Under the pieces are notes generated by a model that made no database searches, was not told the DNA's origin, and saw only the letters and a program-made list of their open reading frames with translations. DNA of 64,000 bases from Sphingobacterium sp. GTDB lineage: Bacteria > Bacteroidota > Bacteroidia > Sphingobacteriales > Sphingobacteriaceae. Numbering within the stretch: position 1 is the first letter of the stretch; every line of letters starts with the position of its first letter. A program made the translations under genes and the position numbers. The stretch is taken from NCBI RefSeq assembly GCF_039596235.1, contig NZ_JBCNKE010000008.1, forward strand, positions 125,946 to 189,945, in the 5' to 3' direction. This document shows, in pieces, positions 7,401 to 35,716 of this stretch.

Positions 7401-8454
7401 CGCCCCAAGTTTTTTTGTCAACGAGTTGTTTGGTTTCCATAACCAAGTTTTTGGCTTGTTCACCACCCAGCAGGGATAGGGCAACAAATGGGAGCGCTCC
7501 GGCTTCCGCTACGGCATTTGCAAAAGCAGGGACATCGCTGACACGGGTCATGGGCCCCTGTGCGATTGGATAACGCAGGCCAAGTTGTTGTGCCAGTACA
7601 TTTCCACCGTCTATTGGTTGCAGCGCTTTTGCCTGTTTTAAATGACCGTACATGGCTTCCTTAAATCCGAAAACAAGTTTTTTTAATGTCCTAAAATCTT
7701 CGTAAAGATCGATGGCCAAAGAGATATCTTGCCCCATAGGTATATAACTAATTGCTGGATCCAGGCCAGTGAAATAGGATCGGAGTTCGGCTGTATCAAC
7801 CTGATCCGATAAGGCCGGCGAGTTTGGACGTACCAGTACACGGTGGTTGGCGATGATTTTAGTTTCAGTTCCATTTAGCTTTCCACAGAGCGTTTTGAAG
7901 TCCCGTGTAAATGAGCTTTCGGGAAACAGCGCGAGCTGACTGTCCAATACAATTCCAGTAGCACCAAGTGCTTTTGCCGCAGCCGCTGTATGAAGACCTA
8001 TGCCGCCCTGTATCCAGACAGGGATGGACTGAATTTTATTGATAATCCGTTGGAAGAGTACAAAGGTGGATTCATATCCAACGAGTCCGCCAGCTTCATT
8101 CCCTTTTATGATAATTCCTGCAGCTCCTTGTTGCTCTGCTTGCAAGGCCTGTTCAAGGCTACAAACCTGATACACAATAGACGAGTGTTGAGCCGTGGGT
8201 ACAGGGCTGCCAAAAGGAAGAATGATGACGCTTACTTTCGCTGGGATTTGAAGGGATAGTAATTTATCATTCGGAAAATAAATTCCATAATTAAATAGAG
8301 CAGTCTGATCAAGTTGATTCAGTGCTTCCTGAGCATTGGCTAAGTCGTGCCCCAAACTTAATACGGGAAATACACCCGCTTGATGGAGTTTGGGCATCAG
8401 ATTGGCGTCAGGCTTTTCAAAAGGCGTTAATCCAATAATGGTTAAATTTTTCAT
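1480..8454 (-). CDS. Iterative type I FAS/PKS, 2324 aa: two FabK/nitronate-monooxygenase-like (ER) domains, KS, AT, 2 ACP, KR
   Basis: ER-like motifs YPIAQGPMTRVS, EGRECGGHVG and FAGGI; KS DAACASSL/HGTGT/GHTKCAAG; AT GHSYG and AFHS; two ACPs LEADLSIDSIKR; KR GGGQGIT, VIHGAG, YAAAN. Confidence 0.93.
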   Translation of the reverse strand: MKNLTIIGLTPFEKPDANLMPKLHQAGVFPVLSLGHDLANAQEALNQLDQTALFNYGIYFPNDKLLSLQIPAKVSVIILPFGSPVPTAQHSSIVYQVCSLEQALQAEQQGAAGIIIKGNEAGGLVGYESTFVLFQRIINKIQSIPVWIQGGIGLHTAAAAKALGATGIVLDSQLALFPESSFTRDFKTLCGKLNGTETKIIANHRVLVRPNSPALSDQVDTAELRSYFTGLDPAISYIPMGQDISLAIDLYEDFRTLKKLVFGFKEAMYGHLKQAKALQPIDGGNVLAQQLGLRYPIAQGPMTRVSDVPAFANAVAEAGALPFVALSLLGGEQAKNLVMETKQLVDKKTWGVGILGFAPQELREEQTAYILEAKPPVVLIAGGRPAQAKVFEKAGITTFLHVPSPTLLDMFLKEGAKNFIFEGRECGGHVGPLSSTVLWEKQIERILKEDHPEEISIFFAGGIHNAFSTAFVSIMAAPLAARGVKIGVLMGTAYLYTQEAVSTGAIQEEFQRQAMQAKDTVLLETAPGHETRCLNTAFAQHFNLEKAKLLAAGVDKKAIWEKLEKLNVGRLRIAAKGVERQGDKLINIPTSEQLELGMYMIGQIATMHDQVISLDSLHQHVGIDNKLYIQEAILPEQPLSSEKPLDVAIVGMECIFPGAKNLEEFWRNIILGKDSVTEVPDERWNKELYYKPDSDGPDVSHSKWGGFIPKIDFDPLAFGIPPQSLAAIEPTQLLTLLVAKRAMEDAGYGEKQINRENISVIIGAEGGNDLANSYSFRGYYKQVFGELHEEVKEAFPHTTEDSFPGILANVIAGRITNRLDLGGRNFTVDAACASSLAAIDLACQELILGKSDMVLAGGADLHNGINDYLMFSSTHALSRKGRCATFDRDADGIALGEGIAILVLKRYEDAIHDGDRIYSVIKGVGGSSDGKALGLTAPRKIGQVRALERAYNQAGISAAAVGLVEAHGTGTVVGDKTELSALTNLFSRSGALPAQTHLGSVKTQIGHTKCAAGLAGLIKASLAVFHGVKPPTLHLRQPNAYYNELTSPFAFHAETGLWGEKRRYAGISAFGFGGTNFHAVIANHPQEDNTITLQSWPSELFVFRGDSYDEAKGQLSQVKALLDINDSVPLKNIAYSLAIASEKTIQLSIVADTAEDLMMKIELVLSGIESKDTFIVNRREGKTAFLFPGQGSQRINMARDLFVIFPEMRKLIAQYPELEKVLFPSTTFDADSLKQQKETIKDTHLAQPLLGIVDLALAKFLHSLGIVPDMLAGHSYGELPALCFAGVFDEDRLVELSSRRAQSILDSVENGDPGTMVAVNANAEQLKALLNRVEGVYPVNYNSPTQCVVAGSTAAIGKLMELLKQERVSAKKLEVACAFHSPLVAKSKELYANVLKDVPFQEMRLPVWSNTTTSLYPTSAFEIKARLTEHLVQPVRFVEELQAMYADGARIFIEVGPGKVLTGLTKSCLEQDHLTLYVEDSNRNKLTHLLCMLAQYLGTGRNFSIDKLFEGRQVQPIQLDQPNLYKKKPTIWRVNGQAAHPTNGSLPVNGALPIISPIKMSNLNNPIAATTEAQPSAERMLQEYLNSMKMLIQAQRDVMLSFLGQNPQVPPTPVYSTPSPNVTADQPPHIPVQPALNENSTVTTAVKTKDIKTLLLQVVSDKTGYPHEMLGLDLDLEADLSIDSIKRVEIIGTLRTELETLKFDQTNEDTIMEQLAAIKTLNGLVSWLTEFSDPTALSTPNGQIAVSTSATANQSALSLAELQTAILDIVSEKTGYPKEMLGLDLDLEADLSIDSIKRMEIIAELKTKIGFGEDLEHAEDLMETLAAIKTLNGLASWISEVSETAPEQRLLSRLRFDLTPADAASAQETEILQGKRFAIAPDHGQHTLAIKTMLEKHGAIAELVNPEQDLAVFDGLIITDTYSATIKHNIIDQVDLIKKMDLDRVKWVYLISDIPAHVEKTNDTHALRHYQGYPGLFKSLAREFEQTNCRLISLSTPQETDQIAEIALKEILTTDKTVEVIYKNDQRHTVDIIPSPLSTGSEEVHIQLDEKSVVLVLGGGQGITAELVKHMSASYPCTYILVGRSADPRKDTPIPKELETMTSKEQIRAHLIQSGLFHAPAQIEKETLHIYKNNQILRTIRDMERLGNTVIYESLDLCDEAALTTLLRQIYEQFGQLDGVIHGAGLLEDKLFKQKTTSSFGRVFDTKVKPLRVLAEQLRSDCQFVVLFSSIASVYGNKGQTDYAAANSVLDDYANVLNKRLKGKVISINWGPWKGAGMVSQTLETEYERRGISLIPLEEGKEIFLNEIRYGTESQVLIMSGNNW

Positions 8455-9000
8455 GCATTGATGATCTTGAAAATATAATAGCAGGAGATCCCATAACAGA
8501 AATCAAAACCGTAGTGGTATTGACGGGGGGGCTGTTATGTTGGAATAAAAGTAATTAATTTCTATTATATTTTTAACAATAAAGGTAATTTGATAATGAT
8601 TTTTTAACAAAAAAGGAATAAATGCCTGAGTATTATTAACCATGAGGCTACAAATTTGTTTAAATTCAGTCGTAGACCGTTTTTTGGATCTATGATTCAA
8701 AAAAAAATAAATATTCATTTTATGTCTGAATAACTAAATGGATAATTTTATCTCAGAAGGCTTTTTTAATTGTGTTTTATCGCAATAGGTTATCATACTT
8801 TATTTTTACATTATTTGTATAACCTGCTTTTGAACCATCTGTATAATGGATAAGATTAGCGGCACGTATGGTAACCTACTTCGCTTATTGGTTTATATTT
8901 AACTTTTTAGTTAAATATGAATAGCAGCTAATATCTTTCAATAGATCAGGTGATTAGTTTTATTTTTGCATTTTTACTTGCAAAGAATGCTTGATAAGCG

Positions 9001-9008
9001 TATATTTG
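9001..9008 (+). promoter_or_regulatory. Bacteroidota housekeeping promoter -7 element (TATATTTG) of tRNA-Pro copy 1
   Basis: Matches TAnnTTTG, 30 bp upstream of the tRNA; TTG at 8978-8980 at a 20-nt spacing. Confidence 0.75.
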
Positions 9009-9037
9009 TGCCACACAAAAACAAGGTGATACCTTTT

Positions 9038-9111
9038 CGGGGTGTAGCGTAGCCCGGTATCGCGCCACATTTGGGATGTGGAGGTCGTAGGTTCGAATCC
9101 TGCCACCCCGA
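9038..9111 (+). tRNA. tRNA-Pro(TGG), copy 1
   Basis: Cloverleaf: acceptor CGGGGTG/CACCCCG, anticodon arm CCACA-TTTGGGA-TGTGG, T-arm GTAGG-TTCGAAT-CCTGC; CCA not encoded. Confidence 0.97.
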
Positions 9112-9252
9112 CTAAAAAAGCTCTAACAAAAGTTAGGGCTTTTTTTGTTTCTAGGCAGAATGAGAACCTACGACCTAATAAGGAGCTGCGAGGTTCGATC
9201 CGGAGAGGGTTCTATGTCGTGTGGGCATTGTGTGGCTAATTTAATCCTGCCA
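9112..9252 (+). repeat. tRNA-linked repeat unit, degenerate copy A
   Basis: Matches the units at 11539-11684 and 11685-11790: TTTCTAGG..ATGAGAACCTAC..AGGAGCTGCGAGGTTCGA, ending AATCCTGCCA. Confidence 0.85.
9114..9147 (+). terminator. Intrinsic terminator after tRNA-Pro copy 1
   Basis: AAAAAAGCTCTAAC-aaaa-GTTAGGGCTTTTTTT. Confidence 0.85.
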
Positions 9253-9657
9253 TTCTAGCTAAAATCATTTATTATCAGGTTTTTTTGAATATGTTTCGGA
9301 CATTTTTTTTTCAATATTAAGATAGATAAGTTTAGCTTAATGGGGGCTAATGTTACAAGATATAAACTCGTGTCTCCCCGTTTGGTGTTTGCTTTTGCTA
9401 ACGAATTATCAAAATAAGCTGTACATGAACATTGAATTGACATGGCGGGTTAAGCTAAATTAAAAAATTTACACATTTAGTCGCTAAATGTATTTCACAT
9501 TCCTAACAAAATTTGTAATTTACTTCTTTGAAATTGCACGGTTAAGTTTCCGCTAAATTGAACTTTTCATCTAATTTATCCGATACTTCGCCAATGCATT
9601 CTTGGTCGTAACCATGCTATGAGGCCAGCCGGATAAAATTTTTCTAATTGAACTAAA

Positions 9658-10551
9658 ATGAATATTAATTTTTTCTTAAACTTAGTTATTCTGTTGTTAT
9701 TGTTGATTTTACCGGAAATGGTCTTTTCTCAATCAACTGATTTTACCATCCAAGAAGTTAAGTTTAAAAGCCAAGGTGTTACTCTTGCGGGGTCAATTTT
9801 AATGCCTAAAAATCCATTTGCGGCAGTTGTGATTGTTCACGGGTCTGACCCGGTAAAAAGAGAAATCGAGTTTGCAACACGTCTTGCTAAAGAAGGTGTT
9901 GCTGTATTGACCTATGATAAACGTGGAGTTGGACAATCTGAAGGTATATATGTTGGACCGTCTGTTGGTACGAATAATATTGACACAACAAACCTTAATT
10001 TATTATCTAACGATGCAAATGAAGCAGTAAAAACATTTAGAACCTATTTGAAAGAGAAAAAGGTGCCAATTGGTTTAGTCGGGTTTAGTCAGGCAGGATG
10101 GATAATTCCGATTACTGCAAGTAAGAACCAACAGATTGAATTTATGGTATTATTTAGTTGTCCTACGATAACAACTGTAGAACAACTCCGATTTCAGTTT
10201 TATACGAATGGCAATAATAACTTTTGGGAACATCATACAGATGCCGATGCCCGTGAGCATATTAAAAATGACCCAGACAAATATCAATTTGTAGCGACTG
10301 ACCCAAAAATTTCTTTGAATATGCTTTCAGTTCCTGGACTTTGGCTTTTTGGAGAGAAGGATATACAAATTCCCGTAAAGTTGTGTATAGAACAATTAAA
10401 CTCATTTAAAGTACAAGGCAAACCTTTTGAATACACGTTATTTCCAACATTAGGACATGATACTTCTTCGGAAAATATTTCAGAACCCTTCGATATTTCA
10501 GTTCAATGGATAAAGCAGAAAACGTTGAACATGAAACTGTCTAAAAAATGA
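9658..10551 (+). CDS. Secreted alpha/beta hydrolase (peptidase S9/S15-like)
   Basis: Signal peptide, VHGSDP, YDKRGVG, nucleophile GFSQAG, GEKDIQIP, LGH. Confidence 0.85.
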   Translation: MNINFFLNLVILLLLLILPEMVFSQSTDFTIQEVKFKSQGVTLAGSILMPKNPFAAVVIVHGSDPVKREIEFATRLAKEGVAVLTYDKRGVGQSEGIYVGPSVGTNNIDTTNLNLLSNDANEAVKTFRTYLKEKKVPIGLVGFSQAGWIIPITASKNQQIEFMVLFSCPTITTVEQLRFQFYTNGNNNFWEHHTDADAREHIKNDPDKYQFVATDPKISLNMLSVPGLWLFGEKDIQIPVKLCIEQLNSFKVQGKPFEYTLFPTLGHDTSSENISEPFDISVQWIKQKTLNMKLSKK

Positions 10552-10827
10552 AAATAGAGTATTTTAAAGGCTATTCCACAAGCGGGTAATTTCACTATCT
10601 TTCTTTAATGCATAATAGCCATCGGCCAAACGCCCTTCCCTCTTTTTATTATCTTCGCTATCATGATGTCATAGTTTGTTGATACAATGGTTAATGTGTC
10701 GGATCGTATTTTGTATTCTTTTACAATTTCAATTGGTCACCCGGGCTAAAAAAGCTGTTTTTTCTTGACGCAGCGAAGTTCACGTAGTTTGGTATAATAC
10801 TTGTAAGTGTACCCCAAAAAATAAATT

Positions 10828-11262
10828 ATGAGCACATTAAAAATGACTTTTAAGAATTGGATGCTGCTATTGCTTGGAGTAATCGCGGTGGGAATGACGT
10901 CTTGCAGTAAGGAAACCGTTGATAGCATCGGAAGAGATGCCGCATTGAATATAATCCGTACAGGTAATTGGGAACGTTGGACTAAAACTGTTGAAGGTAA
11001 TAGTGTTGCTGAGCTAAATGTGACCCGTGAAATGATGGAGCAGGGAGAGACACTTAATTTTGATAAAGACGGTGCTTGGCATAAGAAAAAAGATAATACT
11101 GCAGTTTCTTACGACTACAGTATGCCTGATGCAAAAACGATGATTTTTGATGGTGTTGAATATAAAATACAAGAAAATATTGTTTCTACAGTCTCCAAGC
11201 TAACATTAGTTAATCAGCAAGGGGCAATTAAAACAACGATGGTAATCAAGAGAAGTTGGTAA
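10828..11262 (+). CDS. Lipoprotein, hypothetical
   Basis: SPII signal with lipobox MTSC followed by SKET; beta-rich mature part; long hairpin at about 11274-11317 after the stop. Confidence 0.75.
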   Translation: MSTLKMTFKNWMLLLLGVIAVGMTSCSKETVDSIGRDAALNIIRTGNWERWTKTVEGNSVAELNVTREMMEQGETLNFDKDGAWHKKKDNTAVSYDYSMPDAKTMIFDGVEYKIQENIVSTVSKLTLVNQQGAIKTTMVIKRSW

Positions 11263-11403
11263 CCTGATCCTAGTTAGATTGTCATGAGGTTTAAATTAAA
11301 CCTCATTGACAATCTAATTTTTCGTCTATACATATCATTTTCACGCTCGTTTTAAAATTATTTATCAATGTGTCAGTGTTTTAAGTGTGTGGGTGAAAAT
11401 AAT

Positions 11404-11434
11404 TTTGAAAACAAAATATTTTAGTGTACTTTTG
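11404..11434 (+). promoter_or_regulatory. Bacteroidota -33/-7 promoter of tRNA-Pro copy 2
   Basis: TTTG (11404-11407), 19-nt spacer, TACTTTTG (11427-11434). Confidence 0.85.
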
Positions 11435-11463
11435 TGCCACACAAAACAAAGGTGATACCTTTT

Positions 11464-11537
11464 CGGGGTGTAGCGTAGCCCGGTATCGCGCCACATTTGG
11501 GATGTGGAGGTCGTAGGTTCGAATCCTGCCACCCCGA
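11464..11537 (+). tRNA. tRNA-Pro(TGG), copy 2, identical to copy 1
   Basis: Same 74-nt sequence as 9038-9111. Confidence 0.97.
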
Positions 11538-11538
11538 C

Positions 11539-11790
11539 AAAAAAGCTCGACGAAAGTCGGGCTTTTTTTGTTTCTAGGCAGGATGAGAACCTAGGGCCTA
11601 TTCAGGAGCTGCGAGGTTCGACCCAAAGGGGGCTCAGGGCAGAGTCTGAGGCATGCGCGGCTGAGCCAATCCTACCACCCCGACAATAAAGCTCGACGAA
11701 AGTCGGGCTTTTTTTGTTTCTAGGTATGATGAGAACCTACGACCTATTAAGGAGCTGTGAGGTTCGATCCGAAGGAGGCTCAGTAAGCCG
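11539..11790 (+). repeat. Tandem tRNA-linked repeat units (146-bp period), each starting with a terminator hairpin
   Basis: The tRNA 3' end AATCCTGCCACCCCGAC (11522-11538) recurs as AATCCTACCACCCCGAC (11668-11684); the hairpin GCTCGAC-GAAA-GTCGGGC plus T tract occurs twice. Confidence 0.92.
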
Positions 11791-11872
11791 AACTATATAT
11801 TTCTTGGACTCTGCACATTGTTAATCGTAAAAGAGCGCCTCAGCCTATGTGTATCTTTACGTTACAAAGGTG

Positions 11873-11892
11873 CCATCTTATAAGATGGGACG
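11873..11892. promoter_or_regulatory. Candidate operator palindrome CCATCTTATAAGATGG(GACG), site 1
   Basis: Perfect 16-bp palindrome upstream of the AraC pair; related sites at 14602 and 35465. Confidence 0.55.
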
Positions 11893-12100
11893 ATGCGCGC
11901 GCGAGGTTTACGCAATTTTGAAAGCAGTCTCAATAAAATCGCAATCTATTGGCCTTGGTTTTATGCGAAGATTTCGATTTGATAAATAACAGAAAAGAGA
12001 GTATATTGCTGATGTCCAATGTTTGTAAAAATGACTTTTAGAAAATAGGTGCAGACTCAGAATCAGCTGCTTAATTACAATTTATGCTAACTAATTCCCT

Positions 12101-13261
12101 ATGACCTCAATCTGGCATATCATTTATATCGGTGGTGTCTTTATGGCCCTGTTTCTTTTTATTCTGTTAATCAGCAAACCAAAGAAAAGTGCTGCGGATA
12201 AGATTTTGAGCACCTGGCTTTTCTTCGCTTTTTTTGATCTGATTTTAGTTGGCCTGTACGGATCCGGAGAAATTCTAAGTATGCCGAAGCTGTTTGGCTG
12301 GGAAATGCCTTTTCCCTATTTACATGGGCCTTTCTTGTATCTGTATATTTTGTTTGCTACTGGACAGCAGCGGCATACATGGCGTTATCTGCTCCATTTC
12401 CTTCCTGCTGTGATTGTATCAGTTATACTGGCTTTTGTGTTACCGGACGCGGTCGCAGAATATAAAGGGAAATATTACATGTTGCGGGAATATGATACTT
12501 TCATTTGGATTATGATGTTGGGTTTTATGATCTCGGGGATCGTATATATAATCCTTTCACTAATGTTGTTGCGTCGGCATAGAAAGAATATTGTCGGACA
12601 ATTTTCCAATACGGAAAAAATTACCCTCAACTGGATGCGCTATCTTATTTTCGGTATTAGTGCAATCTGGGTCGTCGTCATTATCGAGGGGAGCCCAGAG
12701 CTATTTTTTGTGGTCATCACGTTGTTCATTTTTTTCTTCGGTTATTTTGGTGTACAGCAGGTAGGAATTTTTTCCCATGCGTCATCGGTACATGAGGTGG
12801 TACCGCTGCGGGAACTGGAATCAGTGGATGAAATACAGTATGACGAGGCCGCCCAAGAGTCTGCTGACAAAGTCAAATATGAAAAGACGAGGCTGGAGGA
12901 ATCTGAAGCTTCGCTCATTCATGGAAAATTGGATGCCCTGATGAAGGAGCAAAAATGCTATCAGGATCCCGAATTAACTTTGGGAGACTTAGCCAAGATA
13001 CTAGAGGTGCATCCCGTTATACTTTCACAGGTCATCAATTCCAGAGAACAAAAGTCCTTTTATGATTATGTCAATACCTATAGGGTAGAGACCTTTAAGG
13101 AATTGTTGTTACGACCTGACAGCAGGCAATATACGATGCTGTCATTGGCCTTCGAGTGCGGCTTCAACTCGAAGACCAGTTTCAATCGAAACTTTAAGAA
13201 GATTACACAGATGTCCCCCAGCGCCTATGCAAAAGGGATCGATGTTCAATTGAAAGCATAA
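12101..13261 (+). CDS. Membrane-anchored AraC-family regulator 1
   Basis: About 7 hydrophobic N-terminal segments; C-terminal AraC HTH (LTLGDLAK, LSQVIN, LAFECGFNSKTSFNRNFKK). Confidence 0.92.
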   Translation: MTSIWHIIYIGGVFMALFLFILLISKPKKSAADKILSTWLFFAFFDLILVGLYGSGEILSMPKLFGWEMPFPYLHGPFLYLYILFATGQQRHTWRYLLHFLPAVIVSVILAFVLPDAVAEYKGKYYMLREYDTFIWIMMLGFMISGIVYIILSLMLLRRHRKNIVGQFSNTEKITLNWMRYLIFGISAIWVVVIIEGSPELFFVVITLFIFFFGYFGVQQVGIFSHASSVHEVVPLRELESVDEIQYDEAAQESADKVKYEKTRLEESEASLIHGKLDALMKEQKCYQDPELTLGDLAKILEVHPVILSQVINSREQKSFYDYVNTYRVETFKELLLRPDSRQYTMLSLAFECGFNSKTSFNRNFKKITQMSPSAYAKGIDVQLKA

Positions 13262-13350
13262 AAGCTGGACAAGGTCAAAAAGATTAACAATATGCTAGCA
13301 GCTGAGCTTTCAATTGTGCTTGTTAGCCTTATTTTTTTAGCTATCTGACT

Positions 13351-14508
13351 ATGATATTAGCTTGGCAGATTATTTATATCGGGGGACTGTCTATTGCGCT
13401 CTTTTTGTGCATTATGATTGTCAGTAAACGTAAAAAGACAATGGCTGATCGGATTTTATGTGCATGGTTCCTTTTCGCATGTATCCATTTGGCTTTTATA
13501 GGCTGGTACGCTTCGGGCTTAGCTCTCAAAAATCCGCAGTTCATTTTGTGGCAGTTGCCATTTCCATTTTTACATGGGCCTTTCCTTTATTTATACATTT
13601 TATTTTTGAGCGCACAGCAGCGTTACCGATGGCGTTATTTAATCCATTTTATCCCAGCGGTTGTCGTCCTTATGATATTAACTTTTGTGCTTCCAGATGT
13701 ATTTGTAAGGACGCAGAGCGAAATAAAGATATTGCCGCAATTTGAAGCTTTTTTCCAAATCCTAGTCGTAGCAATCATACTTTCTGGTCTGACCTACGTT
13801 GTCCTGTCGCTTCGGCTGCTGCATGCGCATCGCCGGAACATAATTGGTCAGCTGTCGAATACCGACCGCATTACACTAAACTGGATCCGGTATCTAATCT
13901 TGGGAATGAGTGCAATATGGGTAGTTGTCATTTTCTCCGATTCGCCACAGACATTATACACCGTTGTTGCCCTTTTTATTTTTTTTATCGGTTATTTTGG
14001 AATCCGTCAGGTAGGTGTCTTCTCAAATTTATCCGCAGCACATGAAATATACGCTCCAAGCTTACTAAAGCAAAGCTGGCAAGACGTCGATCAAGCAATA
14101 CCAGCTGAAAAATTGAAATATGAAAAAACGAGACTGAATGAATCAGTTGCTTCGCTCATCCATGGGAAACTGAACGTTCTGATGAAGGAGCAAAAATGTT
14201 ATCAGGATCCAGAGCTAACTTTGGGTGATTTAGCTAAAAGATTGGAACTGCATCCGGTCATACTGTCGCAGGTAATTAACTCAAAGGAAGGGAAATCCTT
14301 TTACGATTATGTGAATAGCCATCGGGTGGAGGCCTTTAAGGAACTGTTGTTGGATCCCAAAAGTCAGCAGTTTACTTTGCTGTCGCTAGCCTTTGACTGT
14401 GGTTTTAATTCGAAGACCAGCTTCAACCGGAATTTTAAGAAGATTACCCATATGTCTCCCAGTGCCTATGCAAAATCACGCCAGATCACGTTTAAATCAC
14501 TAGATTGA
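13351..14508 (+). CDS. Membrane-anchored AraC-family regulator 2 (paralog of regulator 1)
   Basis: Same architecture; HTH nearly identical to regulator 1. Confidence 0.92.
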   Translation: MILAWQIIYIGGLSIALFLCIMIVSKRKKTMADRILCAWFLFACIHLAFIGWYASGLALKNPQFILWQLPFPFLHGPFLYLYILFLSAQQRYRWRYLIHFIPAVVVLMILTFVLPDVFVRTQSEIKILPQFEAFFQILVVAIILSGLTYVVLSLRLLHAHRRNIIGQLSNTDRITLNWIRYLILGMSAIWVVVIFSDSPQTLYTVVALFIFFIGYFGIRQVGVFSNLSAAHEIYAPSLLKQSWQDVDQAIPAEKLKYEKTRLNESVASLIHGKLNVLMKEQKCYQDPELTLGDLAKRLELHPVILSQVINSKEGKSFYDYVNSHRVEAFKELLLDPKSQQFTLLSLAFDCGFNSKTSFNRNFKKITHMSPSAYAKSRQITFKSLD

Positions 14509-14601
14509 ATAACCGCAGATCTTTGAGTAAACTGTTCATCTTCATGCGCTTTATCGTCTTATCATTTATTTGAAATATTCATTGCCATCAAAAAAAGGTT
14601 T

Positions 14602-14620
14602 CACCTTATAAGATGGAGCG
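14602..14620. promoter_or_regulatory. Candidate operator CACCTTATAAGATGGAGCG, site 2
   Basis: Near-palindrome about 125 bp upstream of the lipoprotein ATG at 14745. Confidence 0.55.
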
Positions 14621-14744
14621 TCTGACAAAAGTGGCTTCTCTATTTTTGGATACTCATCTGTATGGTAGAAGAAATTCTGCTGTTCAGGTGAGCGGAGGAA
14701 ACTCTCCGAAAGACACTAATCATATTAAAATTAAAAAACAGAAC

Positions 14745-15170
14745 ATGAAAAATCGAATTATTAAAAGTGGTGTAAAGACAGGTATATTAGTAATTGCCTT
14801 TTTGAGTTTTGCAGTCGGCTGTTCTAAGGATGATGGCGATGCGCCCAAACCAGTGGGTGATATTCAAGCAGCTATCGGGACGTTTAAAGGAACTATTCGT
14901 GTAGCGGAGCGGGATTACTACAATGCCATAGTCATGGTAACAAAAGAAAGTGACGACCGTGTTAAAGTCGCTGCCAAATCTGGTGAGGCATATAGCGCTG
15001 TGACGCCTAAAATATTTAAAGTGCAGAATATTTCCAATGTTCATATCTCTTCTTCGGGAGGACCATCTGGTTCATTTACCTATATTCTGGATAGTAAATC
15101 CGTTGTTGTTTCAACGGAAAAAGAAGCAGCGACCGAAGTCAGCTTTTATTTTGAAGGTACAAAACAGTAG
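14745..15170 (+). CDS. Small lipoprotein (start reassigned to ATG 14745)
   Basis: MKNRIIK...FAVGC-SKDD lipobox; paralog of 27457-27867; terminator-like hairpin AATCAGCTG..CAGCTGATT at about 15231-15268. Confidence 0.8.
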   Translation: MKNRIIKSGVKTGILVIAFLSFAVGCSKDDGDAPKPVGDIQAAIGTFKGTIRVAERDYYNAIVMVTKESDDRVKVAAKSGEAYSAVTPKIFKVQNISNVHISSSGGPSGSFTYILDSKSVVVSTEKEAATEVSFYFEGTKQ

Positions 15171-15458
15171 TAACACATAGTTCGGTATAGCACAGAACAG
15201 CTTACTGCATAGAAATTAATTAATATATCCAATCAGCTGTGGCTCGGCTCAGCTGATTTGTTTTTTATAGACATCAATGGATGCTTACTTCCTCTTCGGC
15301 TTTGTTGACCTCCAGTATAGGCTTTCTTTTCGTTTTGTCCCTAGGTTTAATGTCAGTGTAGCCTTAGCCTTTTTTAACATGAGATCCCTTGGATAACAGC
15401 GTCGAAACAGTTAAATTGCTGGAAATTTATTGTCAATTAGAATATAAACATAAATAAT

Positions 15459-16439
15459 ATGAAAAGAAAAGCGGCATTTCTTTTGGGGCTTTTGGCCTCC
15501 GCTGCGCTTCCGCAGGCAACTTTCGCTAAAGATTCAATGATGGAATCAATTGTCCAGAACCAGGAGATTGATGGAAAGGAACTAATTGGGCGATGGGATA
15601 TAGAGGTTGACATTAATGGTACGCCTGCACCTTCATGGCTTGAGGTAAAATTGTCAGGTTACAAGACCTTAGTAGGTCACTATGTGAGTACTTCGGGGAG
15701 TGCAAGACCTGTTTCACAGGTTTTTTATGAAAACGGAAAGTTTAAATTTGCGATACCTCCACAATGGGAGAGCGGAAAGATGAATTTAAGTGTGGAAGGA
15801 GAGATTCAAAATGGAACATTGCAGGGCACAATAACAGAGCCTGATGGGAAAACACACCGCTTTAAAGGTGTACGTGCACCAGAATTAAAAAGAACAGCTG
15901 CCGTTAAATGGGGAAAACCGATTCAGCTTTTTAATGGAAAGGATCTATCGGGGTGGAAAGCTACTGGCAAAACAAACCAATGGGTTGTGAAAAATGGTAT
16001 ACTAACCAGCCCTCAATCAGGATCTAATCTTGTTTCCGAACAGAAGTTTGAAGATTTTAAATTGCATGTGGAGTTCAAAATCCCAGCCGGAAGTAATAGT
16101 GGAGTTTATCTAAGAGGTCGTTATGAAGTACAGATTGAGGATAGCCCGAAAGAAGCGCATCCGAATGCAGTGCTGTTTGCTGGTGTATACGGTTTTCTTG
16201 CCGCAAATGAGATGGTGAACAAAGGAGCCGGAGAATGGCAGACATATGATATCACATTGGTCGGGCGTCTAGTGACAGTTGTGGCCAATGGTAAAACAGT
16301 GATTAGCAACCAAGAGATTCCTGGTATCACTGGAGGAGCCTTGGACAGTAGAGAAGCTGAACCAGGCCCGATCTATTTTCAAGGCGACCATGGACCCGTT
16401 GAGTTTCGAAAGGTGATCATTACGCCAGCCATTAAATAA
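15459..16439 (+). CDS. DUF1080 / 3-keto-disaccharide hydrolase family protein, secreted
   Basis: LFNGKDLSGW, FEDFKLHVEF, GSNSGVYLRGRYEVQI, GEWQTYDI, IYFQGDHGPVEFR. Confidence 0.88.
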   Translation: MKRKAAFLLGLLASAALPQATFAKDSMMESIVQNQEIDGKELIGRWDIEVDINGTPAPSWLEVKLSGYKTLVGHYVSTSGSARPVSQVFYENGKFKFAIPPQWESGKMNLSVEGEIQNGTLQGTITEPDGKTHRFKGVRAPELKRTAAVKWGKPIQLFNGKDLSGWKATGKTNQWVVKNGILTSPQSGSNLVSEQKFEDFKLHVEFKIPAGSNSGVYLRGRYEVQIEDSPKEAHPNAVLFAGVYGFLAANEMVNKGAGEWQTYDITLVGRLVTVVANGKTVISNQEIPGITGGALDSREAEPGPIYFQGDHGPVEFRKVIITPAIK

Positions 16440-16548
16440 GGGCAACATATATATATTAGAAGAGACTATCTTTTTGATGCGTACCTTAAAAGTTTAACAA
16501 AGTTAGAATTTAACTTTTCTGGAGCAGTCTATCGATGGGTAGTCTCTT

Positions 16549-16842
16549 TTAGATACCGATTACCACAACTACAATGTCTTCATTTTGGTATGAAGTATAG
16601 TACCGGTCTATTGAACCATTCTCCTTGTATTCTTGAAGCTCTTTAAATATTAGTTTTTTTAAGACACCTTTTCCCTTTCCGTGAATAAACTTGATTTCGT
16701 TCATTTCCCAATAAATAGCTGCATCCAGGTTGGATCTTAAGAAATCAATGGATTCTAGCATAAGTTCGTCGGCGGAATAGTCTTCCCAATCTTCAAGGAA
16801 TGCATTTGCATGTAGATCGACTATTGCGGGTGGTTTGCGCAT
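16549..16842 (-). CDS. Stand-alone Smr/MutS2 domain protein
   Basis: VDLHA and FIHGKGKGVLK motifs; TACATTTG promoter element at 16865-16872. Confidence 0.85.
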   Translation of the reverse strand: MRKPPAIVDLHANAFLEDWEDYSADELMLESIDFLRSNLDAAIYWEMNEIKFIHGKGKGVLKKLIFKELQEYKENGSIDRYYTSYQNEDIVVVVIGI

Positions 16843-16887
16843 GATTCAATATTTTACAGTGCCGCAAATGTAAAACAAAACAATGAC

Positions 16888-17307
16888 TTAATAGCTGAGG
16901 TCAGCCAGGAAATAGACAGCATCGGCAAATTTTTCATACCATTTTTTTATAATGGCGGCAATTTCATATTCTTCCTCTTCGGCATGAGTAAGCATTAATA
17001 GTTCGACCGCATCTAGTAATTGTTTGTGATCAAGAAATAAACCATCATAATCACGGTAGGCTGAGACGGTTTCTTGAATAAGCAGTAGACTATCGTAGCG
17101 GATCAGCATCATGGTATGGCGGGAAGAAATGCGATCTATTAGCCATTCTTTTTTGAAATCAGAAGCGATATGCCGATCACATGCTTGGTTAAACAATATT
17201 TCGAATTCAACAATCTGACTTTTTAGACCATGTATAGCGGATTGGAGTTCCTCAAAAGTACTTATAATCCGTTCCTGTGTCTCCATATTTCTTGATATAA
17301 TCGCCAT
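16888..17307 (-). CDS. Hypothetical helical protein with UVR-like C-terminal motif
   Basis: 139-aa ORF; AEEEEYEIAAIIKK resembles the UvrB/C motif. Confidence 0.6.
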   Translation of the reverse strand: MAIISRNMETQERIISTFEELQSAIHGLKSQIVEFEILFNQACDRHIASDFKKEWLIDRISSRHTMMLIRYDSLLLIQETVSAYRDYDGLFLDHKQLLDAVELLMLTHAEEEEYEIAAIIKKWYEKFADAVYFLADLSY

Positions 17308-17579
17308 GATATTTTACTTAAAGTTTATACAGTGTTGGTTATTAATGTTTTAAATAAAAGCATGTAAGGTATATACAAATGGTTTGGAGAAATGTTTTCC
17401 TATTTATAAATAATAATAGACGGCTGACCTAGAGGATGCTGCCTGATATTAGGTGGAATCTATCAGTTGGAGTTTGTTCCGGAAAAATAGTTTTTGCTTC
17501 CTCAGTATGAGAAAATAGGTAATCTGCTTTTTTTTTACGTTATTCGCATTGCATAAAATCGCATTTAAAATTGAATTGA

Positions 17580-18326
17580 ATGAAGGAGAAAGCAATCGGA
17601 AATTATCAATTAGAAATTTGTTCCAATTCAGTCGCTTCGGCGATCGAGGCTCAAAAAGGCGGAGCAACACGTGTTGAATTTTGTCAAAACTTGGAGAACG
17701 GTGGAACAACACCTTCTTTTGGCCAATTGAAGTTGGTGCGTGAACTTGTACATATTGGTATTCACGTATTGATTCGGCCACGGGGGGGAGATTTTCTATA
17801 TACCGAAGAAGAAGTATTGGAAATGATCGCAGATATTGAGTTATGTAAGGAATTAGGAATGGATGGAGTTGTTATCGGTGCATTGAATGCAGATGGTACC
17901 GTGGATAAGGTCAATACGAAGCGTTTAGTTGATGCTGCACGGCCTATGCATGTGACTTTCCATCGTGCTTTTGATCGCGTTGAAGATCCTTTTACTGCAT
18001 TGGAAGATGTCATTGCTTTAGGCATAGACCGCATACTTACTTCCGGTTTGAGAAATTCAGCTTTATCGGGAGTATCGATACTGCAGCAATTGATCAAGCA
18101 GGCTGCTGGACGTATTGTGATTATGCCGGGGGCGGGTGTGGATGCTTCCAATATCAGGACAATTTTGGAAGAAACAGGCGCTATTGCTATACACAGTTCA
18201 GCAAAAGAAAGCCAAGCTTCAAAGATGCAGTTTTCGCAGGATCAGGTCAAAGGAATGGATGAACCACAGTGGGTAAGCTCAAAAGAAAAAGTCCACCAAA
18301 TGGTAGACTTATTAAAAAGCCTTTAA
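17580..18326 (+). CDS. cutC: Copper homeostasis protein CutC
   Basis: LEIC, GGATRVE, GGTTPSFG, IRPRGGDF, TFHRAFD, RILTSG. Confidence 0.93.
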   Translation: MKEKAIGNYQLEICSNSVASAIEAQKGGATRVEFCQNLENGGTTPSFGQLKLVRELVHIGIHVLIRPRGGDFLYTEEEVLEMIADIELCKELGMDGVVIGALNADGTVDKVNTKRLVDAARPMHVTFHRAFDRVEDPFTALEDVIALGIDRILTSGLRNSALSGVSILQQLIKQAAGRIVIMPGAGVDASNIRTILEETGAIAIHSSAKESQASKMQFSQDQVKGMDEPQWVSSKEKVHQMVDLLKSL

Positions 18327-18344
18327 AGTATAACTTTAAAGGCT
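18318..18344. terminator. Perfect 11-bp hairpin at the cutC stop
   Basis: AGCCTTTAAAG-tataa-CTTTAAAGGCT. Confidence 0.6.
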
Positions 18345-18572
18345 GCTAATTTCTTTTTACTTATTTAGCTTCTGCAGCTAACTGATTTAAGATAGCATCG
18401 TTTTTAACGATTTGGTTGCTAGCTTTCATTTTTGATCTAGAACCTAACTCTACGTTAGTTCCTAATTTCAAGAACTGAACTTCAACACGTGAAACAGTTT
18501 TATTTCTTCTATCTTTTCTTTTTAAACGTGTAACTCCCATTTTGATAATATTTTTATTGTTTAAATAAAACG

Positions 18573-18643
18573 AGGTCGGAAGCGGATTCGAACCGCTGTA
18601 GGAGGTTTTGCAGACCTCAGCCTAGCCACTCGGCCATCCGACC
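18573..18643 (-). tRNA. tRNA-Cys(GCA)
   Basis: Acceptor GGTCGGA/TCCGACC, anticodon arm GAGGT-CTGCAAA-ACCTC, T-arm AGCGG-TTCGAAT-CCGCT; TATTTTTG promoter element at 18668-18675. Confidence 0.96.
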
Positions 18644-19021
18644 CTATTTTTTCCTTTTGAAGGTCTGCAAAAATAAAACTTATAATTGGAATTAAAAAAT
18701 CTTTGTGATAAAACTTTTGTGTTTTTGAGCATTATTCTGAAAACCAAGCTGGTAGTTTTTAGGAAGTCAATAGTCTAAACTTTATAAACGCCTGTTTTAA
18801 GTAGGTAGGGGGAGTTGAAAAAGCTGAACTGTATTCTATTTACTGTATCTTTTAAAGGACAATCAAAAAAAAGAGGTATCGCTTTTTTCTTTTGTTTCGA
18901 AGTGAATATTAGTCGCTTACGTATTTTGGAATAGATATTGCAAATGGATATGTCATAAATCTCATACAGGAAGTATATGAGAAAAATGATAAAAAGAATA
19001 AAGTAAATTAAATTAGGAAAC

Positions 19022-30348: not shown

Positions 30349-30777
30349 TTATTTTTTACAGTGATTACATACGCCAAGCGCGTTTACGGCAATTGCCTCA
30401 AGAATAAAACCGTCGGGGATAGACACTTTTGGTAATGTAATTTCGTCCAGGCAATAGACCGAGTTACATACCCGACAGATGAAATGTACGTGTTGGTCAT
30501 GATGGTCGTGTTCAGAGCAGTTGGTGGAACACATGGCATAGGTAGCGGTTCCATGCAGATCAAAGATCTTGTGGATAATACCTTTTTCCTCAAAACTGGC
30601 TAATACACGGTACAATGTCACACGGTCAATATCCTTACCCAATAATTTCTCCAGTTCCGGTTGGGAAATGGCCGAATCTTTCGTTGAAATAATTTCAAGC
30701 ACCTTTAAACGAGGTTGGGTAACTTTTAAACTATTTCGTTTCAGAATTTCTGGATATACGGTATTGGATTGTTCCAT
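30349..30777 (-). CDS. Fur-family transcriptional regulator
   Basis: KVTQPR, DRVTLYRVL, HDHHDQHVHFICRVC, C-terminal CNHC. Confidence 0.9.
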   Translation of the reverse strand: MEQSNTVYPEILKRNSLKVTQPRLKVLEIISTKDSAISQPELEKLLGKDIDRVTLYRVLASFEEKGIIHKIFDLHGTATYAMCSTNCSEHDHHDQHVHFICRVCNSVYCLDEITLPKVSIPDGFILEAIAVNALGVCNHCKK

Positions 30778-34896: not shown

Positions 34897-35367
34897 TTAC
34901 TTTGCAGGAACTTCTATCTCGATCGTTCCCTCTTCCAATGATAGGATGTTTTTGCCTTGTAGGCTGCCTGTTTTCTTTAAATTTTCGAAAAATTCTTCTG
35001 TCGTTCCTGCATGGGCAACTTGGATAGTTGACTTGTCTTTTTTAAATTTTAGGTTTGCGCCTTTTACGCCTTTGCATGAAGCTATGTTGTCTTTAAATTT
35101 ATCGACATCGTCATAGGATGCTATACCTACGACATGTATGGTAGTTGCTGGAGACATGGAACTATCGGCCTCTTTTTTGTCTTTCTTCTTGAATAGACCA
35201 CCAATTGTTTTAAGTGTCTTGCCAGCTCTGTTTACTGTTTCCGCTGCACCTTCAGCCGTATTTAACGCATAGTCTACCTTGGACTGCGCTAATGCATTGT
35301 GGCCTGTGGAGATTGTGATAAATACAATTCCCAATAGTCCACAAATCTTCATGATGTTTGATTTCAT
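34897..35367 (-). CDS. Secreted protein with HMA-like (ferredoxin-fold) C-terminal domain; start could be 35397
   Basis: Signal peptide ending ALAQ, Lys-rich linker, pattern IHVVGI..KGVKGANL..STIQVAH; no CxxC. Confidence 0.65.
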   Translation of the reverse strand: MKSNIMKICGLLGIVFITISTGHNALAQSKVDYALNTAEGAAETVNRAGKTLKTIGGLFKKKDKKEADSSMSPATTIHVVGIASYDDVDKFKDNIASCKGVKGANLKFKKDKSTIQVAHAGTTEEFFENLKKTGSLQGKNILSLEEGTIEIEVPAK

Positions 35368-35464
35368 AATTTTTTTGAATTTTAAATTGTTATTCATTTA
35401 ACATGTGTATAATATTCTTTGATCTGCTTTGAGAGATAAAGTTATGGCGACTAATGCTCAAAAG

Positions 35465-35487
35465 CGCTCCACCTTATAAGGTGGTCG
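35465..35487. promoter_or_regulatory. Candidate operator palindrome CCACCTTATAAGGTGG(AGCG), site 3
   Basis: Perfect 16-bp palindrome at 35469-35484; the minus strand reads CACCTTATAAGGTGGAGCG, 18/19 identical to site 2. Confidence 0.6.
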
Positions 35488-35716
35488 TTTTTTGGAGATC
35501 GCTTACCGGGTTAGACTTGAAGGAAAGAAACCGAAATGGACTATAAAAAGAATGAGCCCGATAAAATATCGAGCTCATTACCTTGATTATTATTTTGACC
35601 TTGTTCAACTTATAAACGGCTCTTTATGTTGAGAAAGCCTCTTGCTCCGGTGAATACCCAGTCACAGGCTGTTGCCGTTCATAGTATAGGTCGATACGTA
35701 CGACCTCAAAGCGCAG

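Follow-up and report, generated by a model that had tools for sequence, protein, structure and literature searches.

An oriented palindromic promoter box accompanies seven-helix membrane AraC-type regulators in Bacteroidota

Introduction

A 64-kb stretch of Sphingobacterium DNA (the window, meaning the whole stretch that was analyzed) carries the same palindromic sequence on both sides of a tandem pair of AraC-type regulator genes, named here AraC1 and AraC2, and once more about 21 kb away. This arrangement raises the question of which protein reads the palindrome, and whether it is a plain operator or a more specialized promoter element. Our analysis suggests that the motif is probably a promoter-proximal recognition box of seven-transmembrane (7TM) AraC-type one-component regulators found throughout the Bacteroidota, which would activate a small number of secreted or surface proteins.

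Copies of the Box in the Window

A search of the window with CCAYCTTATAAGRTGG, tolerating up to two mismatches, yielded three matches against a chance expectation of 0.05, and three matches were reached in none of 100 dinucleotide shuffles. Followed by RRCG, the motif occurs in exactly three copies, every one of them intergenic and upstream of a gene, as the original prediction had it. Site 1 combines a perfect 16-bp palindrome (CCATCTTATAAGATGG, 11873-11888, + strand) with the tail GACG (11889-11892, +); including the A-rich flank ACAAAGGTG located 5′ of the palindrome, the whole site spans 11864..11892 (+) and lies 208 nt ahead of the ATG of AraC1 (12101). The palindrome of site 2 (TCACCTTATAAGATGG, 14601-14616, +) is imperfect, with one mismatch (TCACC...GATGG), and is followed by the tail AGCG (14617-14620, +); with its A-tract AAAAAAAGGTT, the site covers 14590..14620 (+), 93 nt past the stop codon of AraC2 and 124 nt ahead of the ATG of a lipoprotein gene (14745). 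Site 3 faces the other way, with a perfect palindrome (CCACCTTATAAGGTGG, 35484-35469, − strand), the tail AGCG (35468-35465, −, the reverse complement of 35465-35468), and the A-tract CCAAAAAACGA, for a total extent of 35465..35495 (−). It is positioned past the terminator of an Omp85-like gene and 67 or 97 nt before the gene of a secreted protein (Sec166), depending on the ATG chosen, and a terminator-like hairpin of the upstream Omp85/TamA-like gene (35551..35579, −) divides that operon from the site 3 promoter. The further claims that the palindromes of sites 1 and 3 are perfect, that sites 2 and 3 are equal at 18 of 19 bases when read toward their own genes, and that all three copies end in RRCG were each borne out.

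The copies are strongly oriented. A PWM trained on 18 sites, all from other genomes, gave the window sites 37.5-43.2 bits when they were read toward their genes (37.5, 40.6, and 43.2 bits for sites 1, 2, and 3, respectively) and 12-16 bits when they were read the other way, a gap of 25-27 bits. The runner-up position in the window reached 10.9 bits, and the top score across 50 shuffles was 18.8 bits. Neither the motif search nor the PWM scan identified a fourth copy in the 64 kb, and no copy was found in the coding DNA of the window, in agreement with the original prediction.

Anatomy of the Box and Its Core Promoter

Read toward its gene, the box consists of an A-tract, a 16-bp palindrome with the consensus CCAYC-TTATAA-GRTGG, and the RRCG tail, followed after exactly 20 nt by a −7 box of the form (T/C)AnnTTTG. 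The C and G of the tail do not vary among the 21 aligned sites, and a distance of exactly 20 nt separates the tail from the −7 box in every one of 25 sites (the 21 aligned sites, two sites of Sec166 orthologues, and two metagenome sites), which stem from approximately 10 non-orthologous promoters. The same layout was found in Sphingobacterium, Chryseobacterium, Chitinophaga, Taibaiella, Niabella, and Flavobacterium, as well as in MAGs.

The −7 box of the Bacteroidota sigma-A promoter is documented at −12 to −5 (PMC9723704), and together with the 20-nt spacing this would place the 20-mer at approximately −52 to −33, with the center of the palindrome near −44.5 and the invariant CG tail in the place of the −33 element. 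In the window, the −7 boxes are CAATTTTG for site 1 (11913..11920, +), TATTTTTG for site 2 (14641..14648, +; a perfect TAnnTTTG), and TAACTTTA for site 3 (35437..35444, −), each 20 nt past the tail, and transcription is predicted to start at around 11925, 14653, and 35432, respectively, with a predicted 5′ leader of approximately 176 nt for AraC1. The missing −33 element is in itself weak evidence because strong conservation of this element does not extend to all Bacteroidota (PMC7366714). What is new, as read from the sequence, is the anatomy of the box, which is oriented and phased to the −7 element at single-base precision.

The box has the positional features of a class II site, namely fixed phasing and orientation and an overlap with the upstream promoter element, and the fixed 20-nt phasing and orientation favor an activator site of the class II type over a repressor operator. 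We infer activation rather than repression solely from the position of the box. The same 7TM-AraC proteins might instead bind the box as a repressor operator, such that occupancy of −52 to −33 blocks sigma-A/UP-element contacts until a signal releases the protein. The co-localization with AraC genes described below applies equally to such an operator, a protein bound over the −33 position could occlude the polymerase, and the weak RNA-contig coverage of a Chryseobacterium operon fits an uninduced or a repressed state alike. However, repressor operators usually overlap the −7 box or the transcription start and need no single-base phasing, whereas the spacing is exact in 25 of 25 sites and the orientation is fixed; moreover, the majority of AraC-family members are activators. 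Repression is therefore rather unlikely, and a class-II-type activator site is the preferred reading.

The sequencing runs containing the window locus are DNA metagenomes. In RNA runs of related organisms, coverage was confined to the tRNA region, and the RNA contigs on the orthologous Chryseobacterium operon were patchy and of low depth, with one run resembling DNA. Rfam at gathering thresholds matched three tRNAs only and no RNA family at the sites, and the possibility of an RNA element was dropped because the box precedes the predicted transcription start.

Occurrence of the Box across Genomes

The exact 19-mer has 21 matches in 185,579 species genomes, and the abundance in repeat-like contexts that the original prediction had named as evidence against itself was not seen. 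For eight of the 21, a homologue of the membrane AraC proteins of the window is encoded no more than 2 kb away, one further match belongs to the orthologous cargo operon, and another two are orthologous to site 3. The remaining 10 come from unrelated phyla or DNA of coding-like character lacking a −7 box that begins with TA. A metagenome scan with a pattern of the proximal half and the −7 box gave two matches, both adjacent to an AraC gene, which are too few to assess whether the distal half-site is required. In addition, four AraC orthologues with 46-60% identity, fetched by protein from Chitinophaga, Flavobacterium, Niabella, and Taibaiella, all (4/4) have a variant box with equal spacing at the adjacent promoter.

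The motif and the regulator gene thus co-occur at promoters of distant genomes in a conserved position, and the proposed tie between the motif and the membrane AraC regulators is upheld by 8 of 21 exact matches, 2 of 2 metagenome matches, and 4 of 4 protein-fetched loci, as far as sequence comparison can tell. On the same basis, the box accompanies the seven-helix membrane AraC family across three classes of Bacteroidota. The idea of a plain operator has to be revised, as the element is an oriented promoter box and, in many genomes, the AraC gene lies inside the regulated operon.

Another dimeric regulator encoded elsewhere, such as one of the CRP/FNR type, might read the palindrome, with the AraC genes being just members of its regulon or neighbors. 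AraC-family domains usually read asymmetric 17-20-bp sites, as monomers or on direct or widely spaced repeats, and a perfect 16-bp palindrome is atypical for such a domain. Sites of the CRP/FNR type are 5-N6-5 palindromes centered near −41.5, and the class II sites among them resemble the box in both the 5-6-5 layout and a center in the −40s. The Sec166 sites are also remote from any AraC gene, and Sphingobacterium detergens (S. detergens) has the box and the cargo operon with no AraC gene within the 8 kb that were read. Against another regulator, the box is asymmetric, with the invariant CG tail and the A-tract on opposite sides of the palindrome and the large orientation gap of the PWM noted above, and it is consistently linked to AraC genes, whereas no cNMP-binding/CRP gene or other regulator gene recurs at the loci, so that neither the linked CRP/FNR gene nor the symmetric box typical of a CRP/FNR regulon was found at the examined loci. 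In five lineages, the box lies past the end of the AraC gene and would drive the gene that follows, which makes the AraC gene a neighbor rather than a target, the usual mark of a local regulator, and no second regulator family recurs across these loci. A reader other than the AraC proteins is accordingly unlikely, with a small residual probability for a trans-acting regulator encoded at a distance. The FUR-family gene of the window (30349-30777) was also considered as the source of the palindrome binder and was ruled out because it is a neighbor in none of the other loci.

The palindrome could also be structural or mobile DNA, namely an intrinsic terminator, a repeat of the REP/MITE type, or a recombination site at the boundary of the AraC islet. 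In favor of such an origin, site 3 was called by a terminator scan on the + strand (CCACCTTATAAGGTGG followed by TCGTTTTTTG), T-runs occur at several sites on the strand opposing the target gene, and the AraC pair is bracketed by sites 1 and 2 within an exchanged islet. However, no gene converges on the hairpins along the T-run strand, and the exact phasing to the −7 box is unexpected for a terminator, a repeat, or a recombination site. An intrinsic terminator was rejected because neither site 1 nor site 2 shows a T-run on the + strand, which is the strand of their upstream genes, and site 3 fits on the + strand only, where no gene ends. Genomes carry one to three copies, most of them a single copy at the locus, exact copies number one or two per species genome, and with only 21 exact matches in the whole genome set, the box is not a dispersed repeat of the REP/MITE kind, which would have many copies per genome. 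There is also no recombinase gene nearby in the examined loci, and a structural or mobile origin is extremely improbable.

The Membrane AraC Regulators

AraC1 (12101..13261, +; 386 aa) has seven TM helices at residues 3-219, a disordered linker at 227-263, and an AraC-type DNA-binding domain at approximately 285-380, and AraC2 (13351..14508, +; 385 aa) is its tandem paralogue. Pfam assigns HTH_18 to the two proteins with E-values of 1e-15 and 8e-17 and HTH_AraC above the cut-off in both, and each has the C-terminal region of about 100 aa with two helix-turn-helix motifs that defines the AraC/XylS family. The AlphaFold model shows seven TM helices, the disordered linker, and a canonical AraC domain, with a helical segment predicted ahead of the DNA-binding domain and no periplasmic domain. 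The modeled DNA-binding domain superposes on those of YesN, AraT, and AraC with target TM-scores of 0.72-0.81, and a PDB sequence search agrees with an AraC-type DNA-binding domain.

The DNA-binding domains of AraC2 and AraC1 are 83% identical, with identical recognition helices, compared to 54% identity for the 7TM part. The sequences of the recognition helices, LSQVINS and GFNSK(T/S)SFNRNFKK, hardly vary among 52 family members, and the median identity is 69% for the DNA-binding domain versus 49% for the 7TM part. The nearly invariant recognition helices match the conserved DNA box, whereas the 7TM part diverges. Because the recognition helices are shared, AraC1 and AraC2 would read one box while having different sensor domains. 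The membrane part has no match to 7TMR-DISM or any other family in Pfam, and a fold search gave only generic GPCR-like similarity (TM-score of approximately 0.4), which does not indicate homology. Literature searches on membrane or 7TM AraC regulators in Bacteroidota returned nothing on the family, and the box motif strings appear in no paper of the literature searched.

Putative Target Genes and an Exchanged Islet

The gene downstream of site 2 (14745..15170, +) encodes a lipoprotein of 141 aa with a signal peptide ending in ...FAVGC|S and no assigned Pfam or NCBIfam family; its orthologue in S. thalpophilum carries the same box. The Sec166 gene downstream of site 3 (34897..35397, −) encodes a protein of 156 or 166 aa, with orthologues starting at the ATG at 35367. 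Sec166 carries a signal peptide, a helix near the N-terminus that is modeled with low confidence, and a beta-alpha-beta-beta-alpha-beta domain at the C-terminus, and its family is confined to Sphingobacterium, with the box kept ahead of the gene in four other genomes. The initial description of this protein as HMA-like did not hold, as there is no Pfam HMA match and no CxxC motif, the family has a single conserved Cys, and the fold is merely a generic ferredoxin-like one. The Sec166 model had no PDB fold matches at E ≤ 0.001, and HMA domains were low in the ranking. Across genomes, the genes 3′ of the boxes encode lipoproteins, esterases, hydrolases, and outer-membrane-like proteins, often in addition to the AraC gene itself. 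The suggestion that the regulated genes are secreted or surface proteins is well in line with the signal peptides or lipoprotein signals predicted in the downstream products.

Site 1, AraC1, AraC2, site 2, and the lipoprotein gene are together located in a variable islet beside a tRNA-Pro gene (11830..15461). The islet is 87% identical to S. thalpophilum, while in its flanks the identity to Sphingobacterium sp. CZ-UAM is 90-94%. At the equivalent place, CZ-UAM has a different module of AraC, box, and cargo. Judging from these alignments, the AraC-box-cargo module is swapped as a unit between close relatives.

Comparison with Known Systems

A close counterpart of the box is the class II marbox of MarA/SoxS/Rob in Escherichia coli, which is likewise an oriented 20-bp box at fixed phasing over the upstream promoter element and is read by an AraC-type double helix-turn-helix, with two conserved blocks whose spacing of approximately 11 bp puts them into neighboring major grooves on the same side of the helix. 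However, the marbox is a degenerate sequence without palindromic symmetry, recognized by a small soluble monomer. In the present system, a regulator with a 7TM domain accompanies a box with a near-perfect palindromic core, at a promoter of the Bacteroidota −33/−7 type that sigma-A serves. The system thus lacks both the asymmetric degenerate box and the soluble single-domain monomer of MarA/SoxS/Rob.

For the regulators, a seven-helix bundle joined to a cytoplasmic output domain is also the design of 7TMR-DISM-type receptors, which are common in Bacteroidota, although the output here is a direct DNA-binding domain and not a kinase or cyclase. ToxR, TcpP, and CadC similarly combine sensing and DNA binding in one membrane protein and bring target promoters to the membrane. 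AraC1 and AraC2 do not share their architecture, as the winged helix of the ToxR/TcpP/CadC proteins is N-terminal and of the OmpR type and is combined with only one TM helix plus a periplasmic sensor, in contrast to a C-terminal AraC-type domain behind a 7TM bundle. TfoS of Vibrio cholerae is a membrane-anchored single polypeptide with a cytoplasmic AraC-like domain that directly activates its target promoter (PMC3903286). Nevertheless, TfoS belongs to another phylum, acts on other targets, and has a large periplasmic sensor and one TM helix, whereas seven TM helices with short loops make up the membrane part of the present family, which lacks a periplasmic domain.

Proposed Mechanism and Implications

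In the proposed mechanism, the C-terminal AraC domain would hang on a flexible linker of approximately 40 residues below the membrane domain, bind the box, and activate sigma-A RNA polymerase as class II activators do once the 7TM domain senses a membrane or envelope signal. This signal may be related to lipids or esters, given that a lipoprotein esterase or alpha/beta-hydrolase, accompanied by a small outer-membrane-like protein, forms the ancestral cargo. The regulon in the window would comprise AraC1-AraC2 themselves (positive autoregulation) along with the 141-aa lipoprotein and the secreted protein of 166 aa encoded 21 kb away, and the regulator, boxes, and cargo may travel jointly as a module in the islet by tRNA-Pro.

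A bolder and more doubtful possibility is that the 7TM-AraC fusions are phylum-wide, GPCR-shaped tethered activators that bind as head-to-head homodimers or AraC1/AraC2 heterodimers on a palindrome replacing the −33 element and that form an exchangeable cassette with their cargo. If true, this recognition geometry would be undescribed for the AraC family and would represent the first defined activation mechanism at the unusual sigma-A promoter of Bacteroidota.

Activation at the unusual −33/−7 promoters of Bacteroidota is poorly understood, and the phylum is rich in AraC-type proteins of unassigned role. The pairing of a sharply defined 20-bp box, present from Sphingobacterium to Flavobacterium, with an uncharacterized 7TM-AraC family and a few secreted targets may open several questions to simple experiments, including how an activator contacts the Bacteroidota sigma-A, how a polytopic membrane protein reads DNA, and which envelope or lipid signal governs the esterase/hydrolase cargo. 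The pair may also provide a portable, inducible combination of promoter and regulator for genetic tools in Bacteroidota.

A phased, oriented box at three promoters

Exactly three matches to CCAYCTTATAAGRTGG occur in the 64-kb window with up to two mismatches allowed, compared with 0.05 sites expected by chance, and none of 100 dinucleotide-preserving shuffles reached three. Site 1 (11873-11888) is a perfect palindrome with the tail GACG and precedes AraC1 (12101-13261, plus strand), while site 2 (14601-14616; TCACC...GATGG, tail AGCG) precedes the gene for a 141-aa lipoprotein. Site 3 (35469-35484, minus strand) is again perfect, with the tail AGCG read toward its downstream gene, which encodes a 156/166-aa secreted protein. 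As the original prediction had stated, all three sites are intergenic, and sites 2 and 3 are identical at 18 of 19 bases when facing their genes. When scored with a position weight matrix (PWM) derived from 18 sites in other genomes, the three window copies reach 37.5-43.2 bits in the gene-facing orientation and 12-16 bits when reversed; every other position in the 64 kb scores at most 10.9 bits, and the top score among 50 shuffles was 18.8. Strand, copy number, and context make a terminator, a dispersed repeat, or a recombination site very unlikely.

Once aligned in the direction of their genes, the three window sites share T-rich conservation at a single set distance 3' of the palindrome, and the exact layout was established after orthologous and related sites joined the alignment (21 sites). 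The box consists of an A-tract at -9 to -5 ahead of the palindrome, a G at -3, the 16-bp palindrome, and RRCG, of which the C and G are invariant (21/21 sites), and (T/C)AnnTTTG follows exactly 20 nt after RRCG. The primary sigma factor of Bacteroidota uses TAnnTTTG as its -7 element (PMC9723704; PMC7366714), and in Flavobacterium psychrophilum this element is found at -12 to -5 of mapped start sites (PMC9723704). Because the -7 element occupies -12 to -5, the 20-mer would span approximately -52 to -33 with the palindrome centre near -44.5, and the RRCG tail would occupy the described position of the TTTG “-33” element. The -7 boxes are CAATTTTG for site 1 (11913-11920, plus strand; predicted start near 11925), TATTTTTG for site 2 (14641-14648, plus strand; predicted start near 14653), and TAACTTTA for site 3 (35444-35437, minus strand; predicted start near 35432).

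The box is asymmetric although its core is palindromic, and PWM scores differ by orientation. Where sites were identified with no condition on the distal half, this half (TCAAC, TCGCC, TCATC) is more degenerate than the proximal half and tail, a difference that favours an oriented, promoter-proximal primary contact. The centres of the two half-sites are separated by 11 bp, and a weak extended symmetry pairs G at -3 with C at +3 and the A-tract with T-rich positions at +6/+7.

Linkage of the box to a family of membrane AraC regulators

The 19-mer CAYCTTATAAGRTGGRRCG occurs 21 times in 185,579 species (one genome each). Eight of these exact matches have a homologue of the window AraC proteins encoded less than 2 kb away (three Chryseobacterium species, two Sphingobacterium, and one MAG each of Chitinophagaceae, Bacteroidetes, and Bacteroidales), one belongs to the orthologous cargo operon of Sphingobacterium detergens, and two are site 3 orthologues ahead of the 166-aa gene (Sphingobacterium sp. 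CZ-UAM and S. puteale). The remaining ten come from unrelated phyla or from Bacteroidales and Cytophagia settings and were taken as chance matches; all of them lack a TA-initial -7 box at the correct distance, and one Binatia match shows GGTTTTTG there. Four distant AraC orthologues (46-60% identity) were also picked without regard to DNA, and all four loci carry a variant of the box at the neighbouring promoter, again exactly 20 nt from a -7 box: CCACCTTATAAGGTGAACCG in Chitinophaga oryzae, CCACCTTACAAGTTGGGGCG in Flavobacterium gelatinilyticum, CCACCCTATTTGGTGGGGCG in Niabella, and TCAACTTATCTGCCGGGGCG in Taibaiella koreensis. A metagenome scan using the proximal half and the -7 box returned two matches, both adjoining an AraC homologue. 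Taken from DNA, from protein, and from metagenomes, these comparisons agree with the original proposal in tying the motif to membrane AraC regulators.

In five lineages the box is found beyond the AraC stop codon, where it would drive the following gene, and in five others it stands at the head of an operon whose last gene is AraC. What stays constant is the adjacency to AraC, as is typical of a local regulator with its own site; no recurring second regulator family was seen in the box loci examined. A trans-acting CRP/FNR-like protein recognising the palindrome would account for its 5-N6-5 form and for remote or orphan sites, such as those of S. detergens and of the 166-aa gene, but would leave both the constant AraC adjacency and the asymmetry of the box unexplained. 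Recognition by the AraC proteins is also consistent with their recognition helices, LSQVINS and GFNSK(T/S)SFNRNFKK, which are nearly invariant among 52 family members and match the conservation of the box. Median identity is 69% in the DNA-binding domain versus 49% in the membrane part, and AraC1 and AraC2 have identical recognition helices versus 54% identity in the membrane part.

The 7TM-AraC proteins

AraC1 (386 aa) and AraC2 (385 aa; 13351-14508, plus strand) are paralogues encoded in tandem, and both end in an AraC-type domain (HTH_18, E 1e-15 to 1e-16). AraC1 shares 95% identity with a Sphingobacterium thalpophilum protein, and its family comprises several hundred proteins from Sphingobacterium, Chitinophaga, Chryseobacterium, Niabella, Taibaiella, and Flavobacterium. 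The AlphaFold model (mean pLDDT 80) contains seven transmembrane (TM) helices at residues 3-219, a disordered segment at 227-263 (pLDDT below 50), a helix at 267-283, and a canonical AraC domain at 294-379. With seven helices, the N-terminus would be extracellular and the DNA-binding domain cytoplasmic. By Foldseek, the C-terminal domain matches the DNA-binding domains of YesN, AraT, and AraC, and the membrane bundle has generic GPCR-type 7TM similarity (TM-score about 0.4). No Pfam family was found over the membrane part. The bundle (AraC1 residues 1-219) carries strikingly conserved motifs (LHGPFLYLY, SNT-KITLNW-RYL, and GYFG-RQ-G-FS) and is a candidate for a newly defined sensor domain.

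Genes downstream of the box

Approximately ten non-orthologous promoter groups carry the box. Its downstream genes encode AraC1-AraC2 and the 141-aa lipoprotein of no known family (both in the window and S. thalpophilum); the 156/166-aa secreted protein (five Sphingobacterium genomes); a 193-aa secreted protein with a leucine-rich-repeat (LRR) protein (Sphingobacterium); a 107-aa lipoprotein followed by AraC (CZ-UAM and one metagenome contig); a lipoprotein esterase (PF00756), a ~188-aa protein, and AraC (Chryseobacterium, Chitinophaga, and Taibaiella); AraC followed by an alpha/beta-hydrolase and a ~200-aa outer-membrane-like protein (Flavobacterium and a Chitinophagaceae MAG); a DUF6588 protein (Bacteroidetes MAG); a TonB-dependent-receptor-like protein (Niabella); and an unnamed gene (Bacteroidales MAG). 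Every readable downstream product has a signal peptide or lipobox, in line with the predicted secreted or surface targets. The regulon per genome is probably small, as had also been proposed, with two exact sites genome-wide, plus one with a mismatch, in CZ-UAM, which is closely related to the window organism.

The 156/166-aa protein has a signal peptide, and its gene lies 3' of the terminator of an Omp85/TamA-like gene. The C-terminal domain of the 166-aa form (beta-alpha-beta-beta-alpha-beta, pLDDT 82-92) shares a very common fold with HMA proteins, which is as much of the earlier “HMA-like” label as stands; the protein lacks a CxxC motif, and searches gave neither a Pfam HMA hit nor a PDB match at E ≤ 0.001. 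Directly upstream (35717-43298, minus strand), a TamB-like gene (1761 aa, DUF748 and TamB) overlaps the Omp85/POTRA (TamA-like) gene, and the order of this outer-membrane assembly pair and the 166-aa gene is kept in another Sphingobacterium. In S. detergens, the box and its 193-aa/LRR cargo operon (4957-7583 of an 8-kb locus) are directly beside a 3-keto-disaccharide-hydrolase gene. No AraC gene was found in this 8-kb locus, and the box may be an orphan site with its regulator elsewhere or lost.

Genomic context

Ancestry is mosaic here: the AraC islet at 11830-15461 (site 1, AraC1, AraC2, site 2, and the lipoprotein gene) has its closest relative in S. thalpophilum (87% identity), and the flanking segments 9349-11783 and 15363-19000 have theirs in CZ-UAM (90-94%). 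At the same tRNA-Pro-adjacent place, CZ-UAM has a different module, consisting of a single AraC (76% identity), two boxes, and other cargo. The regulator thus travels together with its boxes and cargo, an argument for a functional connection among them.

The tRNA-Pro(TGG) gene is present twice (9038-9112 and 11464-11538), 95% identical including flanks (regions 8997-9214 and 11423-11783), with a hydrolase gene and a 144-aa gene in between. Both tRNA genes are followed by copies of a ~116-nt element (9099-9214, 11522-11637, and 11668-11783), in which a terminator-like hairpin (AAAGCTCGACGAAAGTCGGGCTTTTTT) accompanies a tRNA-T-arm-like stretch (GGTTCGATCC), and CZ-UAM has 3-4 copies of it. The arrangement may be a scar left by insertions at tRNA-Pro, beside the variable AraC islet. 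Elsewhere, a 2324-aa multidomain synthase (1480-8454, minus strand), ordered as nitronate-monooxygenase/enoyl-reductase-like, KS, AT, ACP, and KR domains, is a PfaA-like polyketide or polyunsaturated-fatty-acid-type synthase. A FUR-family regulator gene (30349-30777, minus strand) adjoins a transaldolase gene and, as far as synteny shows, has no relation to the box.

Proposed mechanism and implications

From the architecture, phasing, and orientation of the box, its AraC-family linkage, and the nature of the downstream genes, all as shown by sequence comparison, we infer a scheme for binding and expression. The tethered AraC domain would bind at -52 to -33 and recruit or stabilise sigma-A RNA polymerase in class II fashion once the 7TM domain senses a signal from the membrane or envelope, and AraC1-AraC2 would be positively autoregulated. 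Repression by the same AraC protein through the box is less likely, as it fits the single-base phasing and fixed orientation less well than activation. For such an activator, the palindrome could be read by a single domain with its two helix-turn-helix units in the two half-sites, as their 11-bp spacing would allow, or by two domains head to head, each also contacting a flank; the weak extended symmetry is compatible with head-to-head binding.

The class II AraC-family activators MarA, SoxS, and Rob act at boxes overlapping the -35 element, and ToxR, TcpP, and CadC are membrane proteins that activate promoters directly. By analogy, the box may work like a class II marbox, but it falls outside the marbox definition as its core is palindromic and its reader is not a soluble monomer. 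The 7TM-AraC proteins likewise differ from ToxR-type regulators and fall outside that definition; the window regulators belong to the AraC/XylS family. TfoS of Vibrio cholerae is a membrane protein with a cytoplasmic AraC-like domain that activates its target promoter directly (PMC3903286). The literature searched contained no occurrence of the motif strings and no paper on the 7TM-AraC family. Together, the box and the 7TM-AraC family offer a precise, testable handle on promoter activation in Bacteroidota and on membrane-tethered AraC regulators.
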